DNA of 20,139 nt from IMG/VR virus record IMGVR_UViG_3300033121_001217; one strand, written 5' to 3'. This document shows, piece after piece, positions 2,246-7,442 of the stretch (positions within the stretch are counted from its first letter, which is position 1; every line of letters starts with the position of its first letter). Both the position numbers and the translations under genes were made by a program. Under the pieces are notes generated by a model. That model saw nothing but the letters and a program-made list of their open reading frames with translations. It made no database searches and had not been told where the DNA came from. The stretch comes from a virus.

Positions 2246-2934
2246 TCTAAAGGCAATGGCGTATATTCTGGAAATTGAAATGGGTGGGTGTATTTCTCGT
2301 ATAAACGAACAGGAGTAATCAGATTGTATTTATCAAACATTCCTTTTTCCAAAACAAAATACTCACAATTTCTTGGGTTTCTGATTTTTTCAAATTCCTC
2401 CACCTTAAAATGAAACCATCTCATAAGAAATAGTCTCAATGTCATTCCGTGATTTACTATAATAGCATTATCAGGAAAATTATCTTTTTGAAAATCACGA
2501 AAGAGTGTATTTAAAAAATCGCTAACTCGATCAAAAACATCAGCACAAGATTCACCATCCGGAAACCTCCAATAAAAATGTCCATACTCGTCTCGTTCCT
2601 TTTCATATTCCATTTGGAATGCTCGACCAGATTTATGCCCCCATTCTTGTTCACGCAATCTTGGGTCTTCATATACAGGTTGAAGTTTAGAAGGATCAAA
2701 CCACTTTTTGATTTCCGCCGTGGTTTCTCTTGCCCGCCAAAACGGTGAAGTATAAAACTTGACAGTTTCTTTTCCACCAATCAACAACTTTAAAGACTTT
2801 CCGGCATCATGAGCTTGTTTTCGACCTAATTCAGTGAGGTGAACAGAATAATCAGGCTTTTCTTTGTAAATATCCTTGTTTACGTTGCCTTCAGATTGCC
2901 CGTGTCTGACAAGTATAATGCGTTTAGGTTTCAT
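2242..2934 (-). CDS. Histidine phosphatase superfamily protein of the phosphoglycerate-mutase-like branch 1.
   Basis: The N-terminal motif LVRHGQSEGN is the catalytic RHG motif. The length, 230 aa, fits the family. The gene overlaps the upstream phosphoribosyltransferase gene by 4 nt. Confidence 0.75.
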   Translation of the reverse strand: MKPKRIILVRHGQSEGNVNKDIYKEKPDYSVHLTELGRKQAHDAGKSLKLLIGGKETVKFYTSPFWRARETTAEIKKWFDPSKLQPVYEDPRLREQEWGHKSGRAFQMEYEKERDEYGHFYWRFPDGESCADVFDRVSDFLNTLFRDFQKDNFPDNAIIVNHGMTLRLFLMRWFHFKVEEFEKIRNPRNCEYFVLEKGMFDKYNLITPVRLYEKYTHPFQFPEYTPLPLD

Positions 2935-3620
2935 TTTGCCGAAATATCTTTCATTACCGTAAATCCAACAACCTGTTTTGTGTACGGTTCCAGTATCCGT
3001 GAAATCTCACACATTGTCAACCCTTCACCAAATGTGTCATCGACGACTAAAACCTTTTTGTTTTTAATCAAATCAGTATTTTTTATATTCAATTCAAGAA
3101 AATTTTCAAAATACCGTCTAAACCTCGTTGGAAAATATGATACTTTAGAAACTTTATCATAGTGTAACCGTCTGGAATGTTGATACGATTCGGGAACTTT
3201 TTCTTTTGTTTTTGGAGATTGTTCTCTATCAACAAGATGACGGTTTAACTTTATATTTCTAACTCTTGTTTTTTTAAAACCTTTATAAATGGCCACTCCT
3301 TTAAAATCACAATCCATTAAAATCTTATCTATAACACGTTTCACTACATCAGATGAAGAAGGCGTACCAATGATGATATCAAACTCATTAATATCATATT
3401 CTTGTAAAAAAACCAACAGCGATTCAATGATCATATTGCTTGACAAAACCTTGTCAAGCTCAGATTTTGGATGTTTAAATCTATCTATGGCATCCCGTCT
3501 CTGATGCTTATTTAAGCCTTTCGGTTCAAAATAAGTATGATACCAAACCGTTCGCCCACAGAGAGTTCTTCTTCTAAGAGAAGTTTTTCTACACTTAGTT
3601 AAATTAAAAGGACTTACCAT
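2931..3620 (-). CDS. Type-I phosphoribosyltransferase domain protein, ComF-like or amidophosphoribosyltransferase-like.
   Basis: The C-terminal motif KVLVVDDTFGEGLTMCE is the PRPP-binding loop of type-I phosphoribosyltransferases: hydrophobic residues, then DD, then a T-x-G loop. The protein is 229 aa. Confidence 0.65.
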   Translation of the reverse strand: MVSPFNLTKCRKTSLRRRTLCGRTVWYHTYFEPKGLNKHQRRDAIDRFKHPKSELDKVLSSNMIIESLLVFLQEYDINEFDIIIGTPSSSDVVKRVIDKILMDCDFKGVAIYKGFKKTRVRNIKLNRHLVDREQSPKTKEKVPESYQHSRRLHYDKVSKVSYFPTRFRRYFENFLELNIKNTDLIKNKKVLVVDDTFGEGLTMCEISRILEPYTKQVVGFTVMKDISAK

Positions 3621-3627
3621 ATTTTAT

Positions 3628-4134
3628 TTAATATTCGTAATAATCTGAATCATTGTCATTTCCTGTTTCAATATAAGAATCCGTATTGAATAAAAACCTC
3701 TTTAAAGAATGTTTGTTCTCAAACATCTCGATATTCGAACCTTCGTAACTTGCGGATTGATGGTCAATATATGCCCATGTGTTTTTACCATCGGCATAGT
3801 CGGTGTTGATGTTCCATTCAATTTCTTCAACACCGATGGTTTCTTTAATAACCTCTTCTAACATGGCAAGCCACTTTTCCCCACGTTCATCCTTATATTG
3901 AATCAAATAATAAGACTGTAGGTAAGCAAAAATCAACTTGGAACCGAAATCTGAATATTTTTCTCGTTCCCAACCAAATTCAGTATGACCAAGTTTGCCA
4001 TCAACAACCAATGTAGTCATGCCAGCCGGCTCATATATCTTACGAAGTTCATACGATTCATCTTTATCGTTATGACTGATAACGATGAAACTGCTTGAAC
4101 TACTATTGCTAACAAATCCACTTCTAATTTTCAT
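3628..4134 (-). CDS. Tag-family protein 1. It has the N-terminus MKIRSGFVSNSSSSSF followed by a unique 150-aa domain.
   Basis: The N-terminal 16 residues are shared with eight other ORFs in this window. A Shine-Dalgarno-like site, agagga, lies 7 nt upstream of the start. Confidence 0.8.
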   Translation of the reverse strand: MKIRSGFVSNSSSSSFIVISHNDKDESYELRKIYEPAGMTTLVVDGKLGHTEFGWEREKYSDFGSKLIFAYLQSYYLIQYKDERGEKWLAMLEEVIKETIGVEEIEWNINTDYADGKNTWAYIDHQSASYEGSNIEMFENKHSLKRFLFNTDSYIETGNDNDSDYYEY

Positions 4135-4428: not shown

Positions 4429-5307
4429 TTAGACATGTTTACATCTAAATCCTTTATATTGTTTATATCGACCATTGGCACAACATACCATGTTTCCGTT
4501 ATTAAGACCATATTGCCTACAAAACTCTCTCAGTCCTTTTATTTTTTCTTCGTGTCCATCGGGGAATGTTACGATGTATTCTTTTTGTGCTTTTATATTA
4601 GAAACCCCAAAAAGAGGGTTATTTTTTCCCCTGTATTTTTCCGGATTATTTTTAACTGCTTTAAAAAAAGGATTATTTTCACCTACGATGTTGTTAATTT
4701 TCCAATTTTCTTTTTCTTCTTTTGAAAGTTTATTTATCCAACACCGTTCTTTTCTTTCACGTTTAGATAATTTTTTTTGATAATTGTTATCTCCTTTAAA
4801 ATTAGATACCCATTTTTCATAATCATCATCTGACATTTTATTAGTGAAATGGTTCTCTCCTTTTAAATTTGGGTTGTTAAAATTTGGATTTCTACATCCA
4901 ATTCTATTTTTTTTCAACCACAATTCTTTTTTACGTTTAGACATACGGTTTAAATAATGATATTTTCCGGAAGATCCAAAATTATTATCACCGCCTCTTG
5001 TTAGATTATATCCATTTTCTCCATCAGGAGCATATGTCTTAAACTGTTTTATGTAAAAAATTTCTTTGTCATTTAATTCCGGAGTATTACATACTTCTAT
5101 AATTTCCCATAAAAAACTTTCTATTCCATATTTTCTAATTGCTCTATGAAATAGATAATTGTATTGACTGTGGTTTTTTCTGAAAGAGCTTTTCTTGTGT
5201 GAATGTATCCTTTTTTCGAGAATGTCTATTGTTTGCCCTATATAAGATTTGTTGTTAACAACGTTTGTTGCTTTATAAATTATACCAAATTTAGGTTTAT
5301 TATTCAT
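4429..5307 (-). mobile_element. GIY-YIG homing endonuclease with NUMOD3-type DNA-binding repeats, of the T4 Seg / I-TevI type. The likely start is the internal Met, MNNKPKFGIIYKA...
   Basis: The catalytic motifs are GIIYKATN...YIGQT, RIHSHK and YNLTRGG. Repeated NPNF, NPLFG and GENHF motifs are NUMOD-like. The ORF-track extension MIRVLLLG... to 5346 is probably spurious. Confidence 0.8.
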
Positions 5308-5355
5308 GTAAATAAATAGTAAACCTAAGAGCAAAACACGTATCAAAGATTGATA

Positions 5356-6450
5356 TTATATTCTTATCTCGGGATAAATTGGGCATTCCCGAGACAATCC
5401 AAAAAGACGTTTTCTCCAATTCACGGATTTTTCATGATTCCAATCGTCTTTCAAAAAATCGTTAATTTTTAAAATATCAATTGGTTCCTCTTTATCCTCT
5501 CCAAAACTACATGGATACGAAATTCCGTCCGTATTACAATACCAACTAAAAAGTTTCGATTCGCACCGTTCACAACAATTTAGAATGTTTTCCTTAATCT
5601 CATTAGTTATTTTAGTGGAATTGGTGATGGCCAATTCTGTTTTTGGACTACTACACGAATCAAACCCGTATCTGATGTTATTTTCCATACAATACTCTAC
5701 CAACTTAACATAAGCATCTGTCGGCAAAACATCAAATGCCTGTCCTCTGTTTTTTGGCTTCAATCCCAAAAAGACGATGGCATTCAATTGTTCAAGTCTT
5801 GAATCGTTTTGTATAGCATTACAAACTTCATATGCCTTCTCAATAGATTTATTATGAATGACATAATGAATGTTTATCTGTTTTCCGCCTCTGGAAATAA
5901 TTCTGTGAATCAGATCATAAGCATTTTCTTCCCTCGGCGGAACAACTGAGATAGCCATTGCTCCACATAGTTTAACTAACTTATCAATTTGTTCATCGGT
6001 TAACGGATCCGATCCATTAATTGTGACATTAGGAACGATATCATTATTTCTACAGTGTTGAAAAATATCAAAGATTTCAGGATGCGATCCGATAGAAGTT
6101 ATGCCGAAAGCAATTTGACAAATAAACAAATTCCCATCAATTCTAGGAAATTGATTCAAGATTTTCTTAAATGTATCCAACGACATGTTATCTGGAGTTC
6201 CTGGTTTGGAGTTATTTCCTTTATAACACATCGGACATGAAACTGGACACCCACCGCCGTCCTTGCCGCTAGCAGAAATTTCAATATCGGCAATTTCAGG
6301 CCCAAAAGGAGACCAAGTTGGGTCATCCGATTCGGTAGCCCCCCATCTCATAAAATGACCATTAAAAATATTGAAATTGTAATTGTAATTCTTGCTTCGG
6401 AATTTTTTAATTCCGTTTTCGATTATCAAAGTTGGAGCATTGTTCATCAT
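5356..6450 (-). CDS. Radical-SAM enzyme with a C-terminal Cys-rich auxiliary domain of the SPASM or twitch type.
   Basis: The motif CPVSCPMCY has the CxxxCxxC spacing followed by an aromatic residue. The C-terminus carries a second cysteine cluster, NCCERCES...YCNTDGISYPC. The protein is 364 aa. Confidence 0.7.
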   Translation of the reverse strand: MMNNAPTLIIENGIKKFRSKNYNYNFNIFNGHFMRWGATESDDPTWSPFGPEIADIEISASGKDGGGCPVSCPMCYKGNNSKPGTPDNMSLDTFKKILNQFPRIDGNLFICQIAFGITSIGSHPEIFDIFQHCRNNDIVPNVTINGSDPLTDEQIDKLVKLCGAMAISVVPPREENAYDLIHRIISRGGKQINIHYVIHNKSIEKAYEVCNAIQNDSRLEQLNAIVFLGLKPKNRGQAFDVLPTDAYVKLVEYCMENNIRYGFDSCSSPKTELAITNSTKITNEIKENILNCCERCESKLFSWYCNTDGISYPCSFGEDKEEPIDILKINDFLKDDWNHEKSVNWRKRLFGLSRECPIYPEIRI

Positions 6451-6521: not shown

Positions 6522-7442
6522 TCAAAAAAACGGATTTTCTTTGTCAGTTGGAACGGAACAATATTCAGGAACTTTGTATTCCCCCTCTTTTCTAAAAACC
6601 AACACAAATTCATGAATTTTGCTTGTATATCTTTTTGCTGCCGCCTTCTCCAATTGCATTGCTGAAAACGGTGTTATGTTTTCCATAACAATTAGATCGT
6701 GATTAGAAAAACCGGCTTTTTTAAAACTTCTTATTGTATCTGCGTGGAATGACAATAACTCACAATCTTTTCTGAAATCGGCAACAACCCAAATACAAAA
6801 TGTTCCAGGTTTCAATACTCTAAAACAACTGACTGCTGTTTTGTCTACTGACTCTATAAACTTATCATAGTCATCTATATCCGATAACTGTCCATCTACA
6901 CTTTCATACTTTTCTATATTAAAATAAGGTGGACATGTAAACACTAAATCAGCAAAATCATTAGGAGTGTTTTCCATCTTAGTGCCGTCCCCCAAATACA
7001 ATGTTGGCGAATCTATTAATTTTCCTTGGTTATTCAAACTCCGAAAATGTTTTAAAGCACGGTTATATGTGTTTGGTGTAATTTCATATCCAAAATATTG
7101 TCTTTTCAGAAAAGTAGTTACAACCGCTCTTGTGACTCTGCCAGCAAATGGATCTACTACCTTCGCTCCTTTTAACGACCAGTATTTTACAATGTTTTCA
7201 GCAAGACCTGCATGAAACTCGGACATCTTGGCAACACCATCTTTGTTTCTGAGGCCATATCCTTTTCGTTTATCAATTTCGTCGTCATAAAGATAAGCAA
7301 TCGACTCCCATTCGGCCTTTGACTCTTTAGTTGGTTTAAATATAGAAAACGGTTTGAATCCGAATTGATCTATTACAGATTTGTCTGATCGAAATGGCAA
7401 AAGTTGTTTGTATTCTTGTTGATTGCCGGCGGGTTTTACCAT
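6522..7442 (-). CDS. DNA methyltransferase, amino-methyltransferase of the N6-adenine or N4-cytosine type.
   Basis: Motif I is VVDPFAGRVTRAV. Motif IV is DLVFTCPPYF, about 65 residues downstream, which is the gamma-class motif order. Confidence 0.7.
   Translation of the reverse strand: MVKPAGNQQEYKQLLPFRSDKSVIDQFGFKPFSIFKPTKESKAEWESIAYLYDDEIDKRKGYGLRNKDGVAKMSEFHAGLAENIVKYWSLKGAKVVDPFAGRVTRAVVTTFLKRQYFGYEITPNTYNRALKHFRSLNNQGKLIDSPTLYLGDGTKMENTPNDFADLVFTCPPYFNIEKYESVDGQLSDIDDYDKFIESVDKTAVSCFRVLKPGTFCIWVVADFRKDCELLSFHADTIRSFKKAGFSNHDLIVMENITPFSAMQLEKAAAKRYTSKIHEFVLVFRKEGEYKVPEYCSVPTDKENPFF

Follow-up and report, generated by a model that had tools for sequence, protein, structure and literature searches.

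A twitch-type radical-SAM enzyme of viruses and the near-invariant N-terminal tag of phage proteins on which it may act

What does the radical S-adenosylmethionine (SAM) enzyme encoded by the viral DNA stretch IMGVR_UViG_3300033121_001217 act upon? This stretch of the IMG/VR collection, called here the window at its full length of 20,139 nucleotides, carries the gene for the enzyme on the minus strand at 5356..6450 (ATG start, 364 amino acids (aa), PHROG 7293). On the same strand, it also encodes nine proteins that begin with one and the same serine-rich sequence. An earlier note, made from the sequence of the window alone, had proposed that the enzyme could be a protein maturase acting on this shared N-terminus or, alternatively, an enzyme that modifies nucleotides. 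The first of these proposals is favoured here, since the best structural neighbours of the enzyme modify peptides or proteins and since enzyme and tag occur together across divergent phages. We estimate at roughly 0.68 the probability that a twitch-type radical-SAM maturase acts on the phage's own proteins that carry this invariant tag.

The CX3CX2C motif of the radical-SAM superfamily is present in the window enzyme as C68-x3-C72-x2-C75, followed by Y76-K77-x-N79; the codons of this [4Fe-4S] motif lie at 6226..6249 on the minus strand. In an alignment of 45 homologues, taken from 340 metagenomic hits, no variation was seen at C72, C75, Y76, K77 and N79, and C68 is conserved to at least 90%, which bears out the CxxxCxxC(Y) site reported earlier. 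The C-terminal third contains seven cysteines in all. C266, C314 and C356 are invariant in the same alignment, C296 is at least 90% conserved and the other C-terminal cysteines are not conserved. The SPASM/twitch hairpin signature CX9-15GX4C is matched by C296-x12-G309-x4-C314, in which G309 is at least 90% conserved, and the auxiliary-cluster domain, from C266 to C356 (5383..5655, minus strand), also gives weak profile matches to BtrN and SkfB. Because four auxiliary cysteines are conserved and the second-cluster motif CX2CX5CX3C of the full seven-cysteine SPASM domain is absent, a single auxiliary cluster is predicted. From these sequence features, the family is best described as twitch-type, with one fully cysteine-ligated auxiliary cluster; of the two domain types put forward in the note for the C-terminal cysteines, twitch is retained and full SPASM is set aside. 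PF13186 did not match the window enzyme, and 3 of the 120 homologues listed have such a match.

With Pfam, Radical_SAM (PF04055) scored below its gathering threshold for the window enzyme (22.5 vs 29.5 bits, E 1.4e-4); a precomputed PF04055 hit is present in many homologues. The best NCBIfam match, NrdG, was sub-threshold (17.2 bits for a cut-off of 126.1), no significant Pfam or NCBIfam match was obtained for QueE, viperin or MoaA, anSME gave no NCBIfam match at E <= 1, and PADLOC returned nothing for the enzyme. The sole family match was PHROG 7293, of unknown function (E 5e-74). No confident place was found in a housekeeping family such as NrdG or QueE; an assignment of that kind was what the note had named as speaking against its proposal.

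The AlphaFold2 model computed from the 45-sequence alignment (predicted local distance difference test score 95.6, predicted template modelling score 0.93) has a radical-SAM core with a partial TIM-barrel fold. When this model was compared with the PDB by Foldseek, SuiB (8e-10) and SkfB (2e-9) came first, followed by BlsE, NifB, PflA, viperin and PqqE. The best structural neighbours are the peptide or protein modifiers SuiB, SkfB, anSME and CteB, so that the subfamily search recommended in the note leads to the peptide- and protein-modifying SPASM/twitch enzymes. Profile searches against the PDB gave only marginal radical-SAM matches (BtrN, E 0.002; SkfB, E 0.0085); the match to BtrN, the best sequence-profile match among the radical-SAM enzymes of the PDB, spans the cluster motif and the twitch helix. 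With the single enzyme sequence, the PDB search returned only spurious PPR matches.

The family-specific N-terminal extension (residues 1-55; 6286..6450, minus strand) is strongly conserved in the alignment, with the block YNYNF..G.F.RWG..DDP. In the model it is all-beta and devoid of helices, with DSSP strands at 7-11, 14-18, 23-27 and 33-36. No Pfam match to PqqD or to the recognition element (RRE) of peptides that are made by the ribosome and modified after translation (RiPPs) was found in the enzyme. We infer that the extension is not an RRE and regard it as a candidate element for the docking of the tag.

The serine-rich N-terminus is a near-invariant 16-residue tag, M-K-x-R-x-G-F-V-S-N-S-S-S-S-S-F. 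In the window, it takes the form M-K-I/V-R-S/N-G-F-V-S-N-S-S-S-S-S-F and stands at residue 1 of nine minus-strand open reading frames (ORFs), starting at positions 4134, 12402, 12998, 13344, 14218, 14612, 15355, 16138 and 16414. The window has nine matches to the back-translated motif, where 100 shuffles give an expectation of 0.00; the nine proteins with a leader-like start that had been counted earlier are thus an exact figure. No alignment of the nine proteins is possible past residue 16, and only residues 1-16 are invariant.

Of 147 relatives of the enzyme in IMG/VR, 80 loci were taken with their 10-kb flanks, and 331 tags were found in these loci. R4, G6, S9, S11 and S12 are invariant in all 331, and conservation is nearly complete at N10 (330), K2 (329), F7 (322), F16 (318), V8 (316), S15 (316) and S13 (310). 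In every case the tag begins at residue 1, with the initiation codon. Both AGY and TCN codons are used at every serine position, all four glycine codons occur, and arginine is encoded by AGA as well as CGN. Since these synonymous codons vary freely, AGY/TCN switches included, selection on the tag acts on the peptide and not on a DNA or RNA element, and an origin of the tag at the DNA level, as a recombination or regulatory site, was rejected.

When the tag was masked and the remainder clustered by BLAST, 343 tagged ORFs fell into 115 unrelated clusters, of which 78 were singletons. The tagged proteins have a median length of 130 aa, and at least one has a confidently predicted fold. They are soluble and acidic (net negative in 92%, mean D+E content of 20%, a membrane-like stretch in none); the contrast in acidity with untagged ORFs is a rough one, as the untagged set includes spurious ORFs. 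Residues 1-10 of the tag are predicted to be disordered and therefore accessible. Because invariance is confined to residues 1-16, the proteins behind it form 115 unrelated clusters, selection acts on the peptide and the residues are accessible, the tag has the traits of a peptide that is recognised or serves as a substrate.

When a profile built from the N-terminal 40 residues of the nine window proteins was searched against 1.84 billion proteins (E <= 0.001), it matched 22,552 representatives of 50%-identity clusters; in nearly all of the best 150 of these, the match begins at residue 1. Rare variants of the tag exist, for example R-x-D-F-V-T-N-S-S, and Gly6 is replaced by Asp in some. The proteins P0207-P0213, P0215 and P0264 each contain two complete tags, the second being internal and again reading MK.R.GFVSNSSS. 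These double-tag proteins look like read-through fusions of adjoining tagged genes; recoding of stop codons in the source phages, or an artefact of gene calling, could explain them. For the tagged window proteins, no family was found in Pfam or NCBIfam and nothing significant in PADLOC; PHROG 7397 (unknown function) matches tagged proteins mainly at their N-termini. A tblastn search of phages with the tagged protein encoded at 11908-12402 gave no match. The bare 20-aa tag gave none either, which its removal by the low-complexity filter would lead one to expect.

Enzyme and tag are linked in metagenomic loci. In the 80 IMG/VR loci, all 331 tags lie on the strand of the radical-SAM gene, at least one tag is present in 67 loci, up to 13 occur in a single locus, and the tagged genes usually adjoin the enzyme gene. 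In a non-redundant set of 95 enzyme clusters at <=90% identity (pairwise identity: median 44%, minimum 31%), a tag was found in the flank of 79; the start of a tag lies less than 1.5 kb from the enzyme gene in 65 of the 95, with a median nearest distance of 424 nt. On the 79%-identical contig L003, an orthologue of the tagged gene at 3628-4134 (56% identical) directly follows the enzyme gene, and two contigs whose enzymes show 56% and 53% identity carry eight and six tagged genes, respectively, just upstream of the enzyme gene. In a scan seeded with the tag, the enzyme was present on at least 59 of the 109 contigs among the matches listed (120 stretches).

All same-strand ORFs of 84 loci were also clustered by BLAST. 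The radical-SAM enzyme is the only universal family, and the families that come next, in 35, 27, 27 and 19 loci, are tagged. No untagged family was present in more than 15 of the 84 loci, and so no third conserved partner (protease, methyltransferase, phosphoribosyltransferase (PRTase), phosphatase, MVP-like or vWA protein) was found.

In GTDB species genomes, which are independent of the IMG/VR set, only 29 enzyme loci were detected, nearly all on contigs of metagenome-assembled genomes (MAGs) with GC contents of 23-59%, and tags were present in 20 of them. Many loci with both enzyme and tag are on contigs binned as archaeal: Asgard, Nanoarchaeota, Woesearchaeota, Bathyarchaeia and Thermoplasmata (loci L210, L213, L216-L219, L222-L224, L228, L229, L235 and L236). 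A 793-kb Promethearchaeota MAG contig has a single tag, on the strand opposite to the radical-SAM gene. Mis-binning of phage contigs could account for the archaea-binned loci, but they may also stem from archaeal viruses or represent a cellular copy.

Of 50,697 phage records, 173 contain the enzyme and 171 a particular tagged family, with near-identical counts by first word of the phage name. The carriers of the enzyme are phages of pseudo-T-even and Slopekvirus type, RB43, RB16 and KP15 among them, together with the Vibrio jumbo phage D479. In the T4-like isolates (RB43, RB16, KP15), a distance of about 20 kb separates tagged genes from the enzyme gene; in D479, five tagged ORFs are found within 12 kb of it, and RB43 encodes at least two tagged proteins in the 18 kb examined. 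The enzyme gene of RB43 is at 92379-93425 of HE858210.2, and its tagged proteins include CCK73969.1 and CCK73964.1. A nucleotide search with the whole window gave no match among known phages.

The system ranges over E. coli phage RB43, jumbo phages and archaea-binned contigs, and its distribution is essentially viral. The odds seem a little better than even that it is a widespread viral post-translational system, in which one twitch-type enzyme modifies the 16-residue tag, possibly with a new modification, on tens of thousands of small acidic phage proteins. No description of such a system was found in the literature, also searched with the tag sequence strings, most subscription journals being outside the coverage of this search.

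How might the enzyme act on the tag? We propose that the flexible first ~10-12 residues of a tagged protein would enter the enzyme barrel, perhaps before or during folding, and that the N-terminal beta extension may aid the docking of the tag. The CX3CX2C cluster would cleave SAM to produce the 5'-deoxyadenosyl radical, which would in turn take a hydrogen atom from one of the residues G6-S12, the stretch under the strongest constraint, and the single fully cysteine-ligated auxiliary cluster would take the second electron. Many different proteins, acidic, soluble and effector-like, would thereby come to share one chemical handle. What the data establish is the class and fold of the enzyme, the tag with its constraint at the peptide level, and the physical and phyletic linkage of the two; the tag as substrate, the residue attacked, the chemistry and the biological purpose are inferences.

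As a committed guess, the chemistry would be a two-electron oxidation; this fits because the single auxiliary cluster is predicted to be fully ligated, as in the dehydrogenase BtrN. If the tag is the substrate, the conversion of a serine to a formylglycine-type aldehyde at S9, S11 or S12, by analogy with anSME, can be put forward only tentatively, and a C-C or C-O crosslink centred on Phe7 appears somewhat more doubtful still. Thioether (sactionine) formation, one of the chemistries considered in the earlier note, is unlikely, as the tag contains no cysteine. The absence of a conserved non-cluster cysteine would also make a cysteine-donor epimerase less likely.

Several points weigh against a maturase acting on the tag. 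SuiB and SkfB, the best structural neighbours, make crosslinks and not aldehydes, while anSME has two auxiliary clusters (a full SPASM domain, compared with four auxiliary cysteines in the window family) and a different substrate motif; in addition, the enzyme has no RRE. A signal for targeting would likewise be compatible with a tag placed strictly at residue 1. In 16 of the 95 non-redundant enzyme clusters, no tag is present within 10 kb; on two contigs of this kind, tags lie further away on the same contig. The count of enzymes on the 109 tag-bearing contigs listed is a minimum, as 50 of these contigs are represented by partial stretches only. Finally, the co-occurrence of enzyme and tag is partly shared ancestry, and the ~170 isolates represent only a few independent lineages.

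Among the known systems, anSME/AslB and the prochlorosin system are the closest in logic, the former with one enzyme acting on many full-length proteins at one short Ser/Cys motif. That motif, (C/S)xPxR, is located in the active site of one enzyme family, whereas more than 100 unrelated small proteins have the tag at residue 1; written as (C/S)-x-P/A-x-R, the motif is likewise not found in the tag, which lacks P-x-R. The closest in structure are SuiB/StrB (streptide) and SkfB (sporulation killing factor), with a sequence identity of only 13-15%. Their substrates are short leader-core peptides, whereas the putative substrates here are folded proteins of 80-270 aa, and the tag has neither the cysteine required by SkfB nor the Lys-Trp pair required by SuiB. 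The adjoining substrate-like genes on the same strand encode proteins of the median length given above, at least one with a confidently predicted fold, and not the short peptides typical of RiPPs. In contrast to RRE-dependent RiPP maturases, the enzyme has no RRE/PqqD-like domain and its N-terminal extension is all-beta; unlike in RiPP leader-core precursors, the conserved part is here the presumed site of modification.

BtrN is the closest in domain architecture, the similarity being marginal; it oxidises a small-molecule aminocyclitol and has neither a protein substrate nor an N-terminal extension. In the prochlorosin system (ProcM, Nif11-type leaders), one enzyme serves many paralogous precursors with a conserved N-terminus and a hypervariable remainder. 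The logic is common to both systems; however, prochlorosins depend on a lanthipeptide synthetase, have short secreted cores and belong to a cellular host, whereas the present enzyme is a viral radical-SAM protein. PflA and NrdG differ by another motif register and the lack of a twitch domain. The present system differs from all of these by its single auxiliary cluster and new all-beta extension without RRE, by a tag fixed at residue 1, by folded putative substrates from more than 100 unrelated families and by its essentially viral distribution.

The co-occurrence of enzyme and tag would fit equally well if the tag remained unaltered and served as an adaptor, tethering diverse target-binding domains to the enzyme, which would modify or damage the bound host molecule. 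The tagged domains are indeed very diverse, with their 115 clusters, and acidic like many phage inhibitor proteins, and the conserved beta extension of the enzyme could bind a strand. However, an invariant glycine and a run of serines are more in keeping with a substrate in an active site than with a docking strand, the nearest structural relatives all modify the peptide that they bind, and we know of no radical-SAM enzyme that works with exchangeable adaptor proteins. Such an adaptor role is, in our opinion, unlikely.

We attach an equally low likelihood to the tag being a sorting signal, for capsid packaging and injection, compartment loading or proteolytic control, with the enzyme as a co-inherited passenger that has a separate substrate. 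T4-type phages use N-terminal capsid-targeting sequences, the tag is at residue 1 in all IMG/VR cases and in nearly all of the best profile matches described above, and the window encodes an MVP-like shell protein. Nevertheless, the tag contains neither the Glu-containing T4 protease site nor a hydrophobic signal core, and the MVP-like gene, like all other neighbours, is not conserved with the enzyme-tag pair. A passenger status would also leave unexplained why enzyme and tag persist together at a distance of ~20 kb in T4-like phages, and why they are linked across phages of 23-59% GC whose enzymes are down to 31% identical.

Less probable again is the modification of nucleotides or nucleic acids (DNA hypermodification, a deazapurine, viperin-like or tRNA function), in which the enzyme would cooperate with the methyltransferase and the PRTase/phosphatase pair pointed out in the earlier note. 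These genes are real: an N6/N4 DNA methylase adjoins the enzyme gene (6522-7442), and a PRTase-domain protein and a histidine phosphatase are encoded on the minus strand at 2931-3620 and 2242-2934, respectively. None of them, however, recurs beside the enzyme in the 84 loci. The methylase, PRTase and phosphatase genes, as well as the HATPase, MVP-like and DUF2828/DUF7788 genes described below, are local neighbours and not partners, because they are not conserved in these loci, and the contextual support for DNA hypermodification is thereby removed. The family searches, with no significant match to QueE, viperin, NrdG or MoaA, do not support this alternative either. Phages KP15 and KP27 are reported to differ in restriction resistance, and the paper in which an "unknown DNA modification" is discussed leaves the radical-SAM gene unmentioned (PMC5219037). 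The enzyme is carried by KP15, the one member of this pair for which its status has been established. For annotation, caution is advised: the methyltransferase and the PRTase/phosphatase of the window are not to be taken as partners of the enzyme.

A glycyl-radical activase that would place a radical on the invariant Gly6, as PflA and NrdG do on RVxGY motifs, can be dismissed as very improbable, since in the tag (K-I-R-x-G-F-V-S) the register of the arginine is off by one residue, Lys, Gln and Ile are all accepted at position -1, some variants have Asp in place of Gly6, the PROSITE glycyl-radical pattern [STIV]-x-R-[IVT]-[CSA]-G-Y-x-[GACV] is not matched, a disordered N-terminus could not shield a stable radical, activases of glycyl-radical enzymes have no twitch domain, and the NrdG score lies far under its cut-off.

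If the enzyme does modify the tag, as favoured here, thousands of "hypothetical" phage proteins would gain a common biochemical property and could be recognised by sequence alone, with the tag as the mark of a large and so far hidden class of phage effectors. Radical-SAM maturation, known for secreted peptides and sulfatases, would then also take in whole sets of viral proteins inside the cell, and new radical chemistry on a Gly/Phe/Ser/Asn motif would be possible. The 16-residue tag and its dedicated enzyme would moreover constitute a natural protein handle and, possibly, a labelling method. As the system occurs in phages of E. coli, Klebsiella and Vibrio that can be cultured (RB43, RB16, KP15, D479), these proposals are directly testable.

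The nine tagged genes of the window, all on the minus strand with the tag at residue 1, are distributed as follows. Tagged protein 1 (3628..4134, 168 aa) starts MKIRSGFVSNSSSSSF. In tagged protein 2 (11908..12402, 164 aa), the tag is followed by a Cys-rich CxxC...SGMD module, and this subfamily is present in 27 loci. Tagged proteins 3 (12657..12998) and 4 (13003..13344) are both 113 aa long, and tagged protein 5 (13889..14218) has 109 aa. Counted from the ATG of the tag, tagged proteins 6 (14235..14612) and 7 (15041..15355) have 125 and 104 aa; an AGGAG-like site lies upstream of this ATG in gene 6. Tagged protein 8 (15545..16138, 197 aa) has homologues in RB43- and KP15-like phages and belongs to the tagged subfamily with the widest distribution, and tagged protein 9 (16145..16414) has 89 aa. 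In the subfamily of tagged protein 2 (L003 2196-2567, L006 7464-7961 and L008 7407-7910), the tag is directly followed by CxxCG...SGMD...C.NGHTFC..H, with CP(I/V)C at the C-terminus. This CxxCG...CP(I/V)C module looks like a zinc-binding one, and the genes of this subfamily are often the tagged genes nearest to the radical-SAM gene.

Between the enzyme gene and tagged gene 1, a GIY-YIG homing endonuclease is encoded at 4429..5346 (minus strand; Pfam GIY-YIG, PHROG homing-endonuclease families). It is absent at the corresponding position in L003, and tagged gene 1 was probably the immediate downstream neighbour of the enzyme gene before the endonuclease was inserted. The endonuclease is context and not a functional part of the enzyme-tag system. 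The radical-SAM gene draws selfish elements elsewhere as well (L239 13130-13858; P0105; H95 and H116): in D479, a homing endonuclease gene directly follows it, and one metagenomic homologue of 503 aa contains an intein (Pfam domains Hint and intein-splicing). For Cronobacter phage leB and Citrobacter phage IME-CF2, the match to the radical-SAM gene is split in two.

The PRTase and histidine phosphatase ORFs share 4 nt, and their translation is probably coupled; they could form a phage nucleotide or NAD-related module. A His_Phos_1 gene is also found ~2.6 kb downstream of the radical-SAM gene in L008.

The MVP-like gene at 9365-11872 (minus strand) encodes an 835-aa protein with matches to MVP_shoulder (E 1.5e-22) and Vault_3 (E 4e-12). 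Its only relatives in the phage collection, with ~42% identity, are in LR756500, LR756501 and LR756503 ("uncultured phage", 462-735 kb), and a shell protein of this kind is unusual in a phage. These matches point to a very large phage as the source of the window. Proteins of TROVE/vWA type recur near tagged genes (window 18501-20009, minus strand; L008 892-2337; L089 5852-8098; L240 7360-9579): the window encodes a DUF2828 + DUF7788 protein and L008 a TROVE protein, while in the T4-like phages leN and RB43 a protein of 739-748 aa is encoded between the two tagged genes, the leN copy matching vWA models. By BLAST clustering, the TROVE/vWA proteins did not form a conserved family across the loci. 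Together, the TROVE/vWA and MVP-like genes recall components of the vault particle.

At 7513-9153 (minus strand), a 546-aa HATPase_c_3 protein (GHKL/MORC-like) is encoded, which matches MzaB in PADLOC (E 3e-14); MzaB forms part of an anti-phage system of bacteria, and the present gene is that of a phage. Upstream of the tagged cluster, the minus strand carries a Bac_transf sugar transferase gene (17775-18377, E 5e-59) and, directly upstream of the cluster, two genes for proteins with signal-peptide-like hydrophobic N-termini (17244-17759 and 16522-17241). In L003, an NAD-dependent epimerase/dehydratase is encoded two genes after the radical-SAM gene. The presence of a sugar-related function beside a Ser-rich tag that contains N-x-S may be a coincidence.

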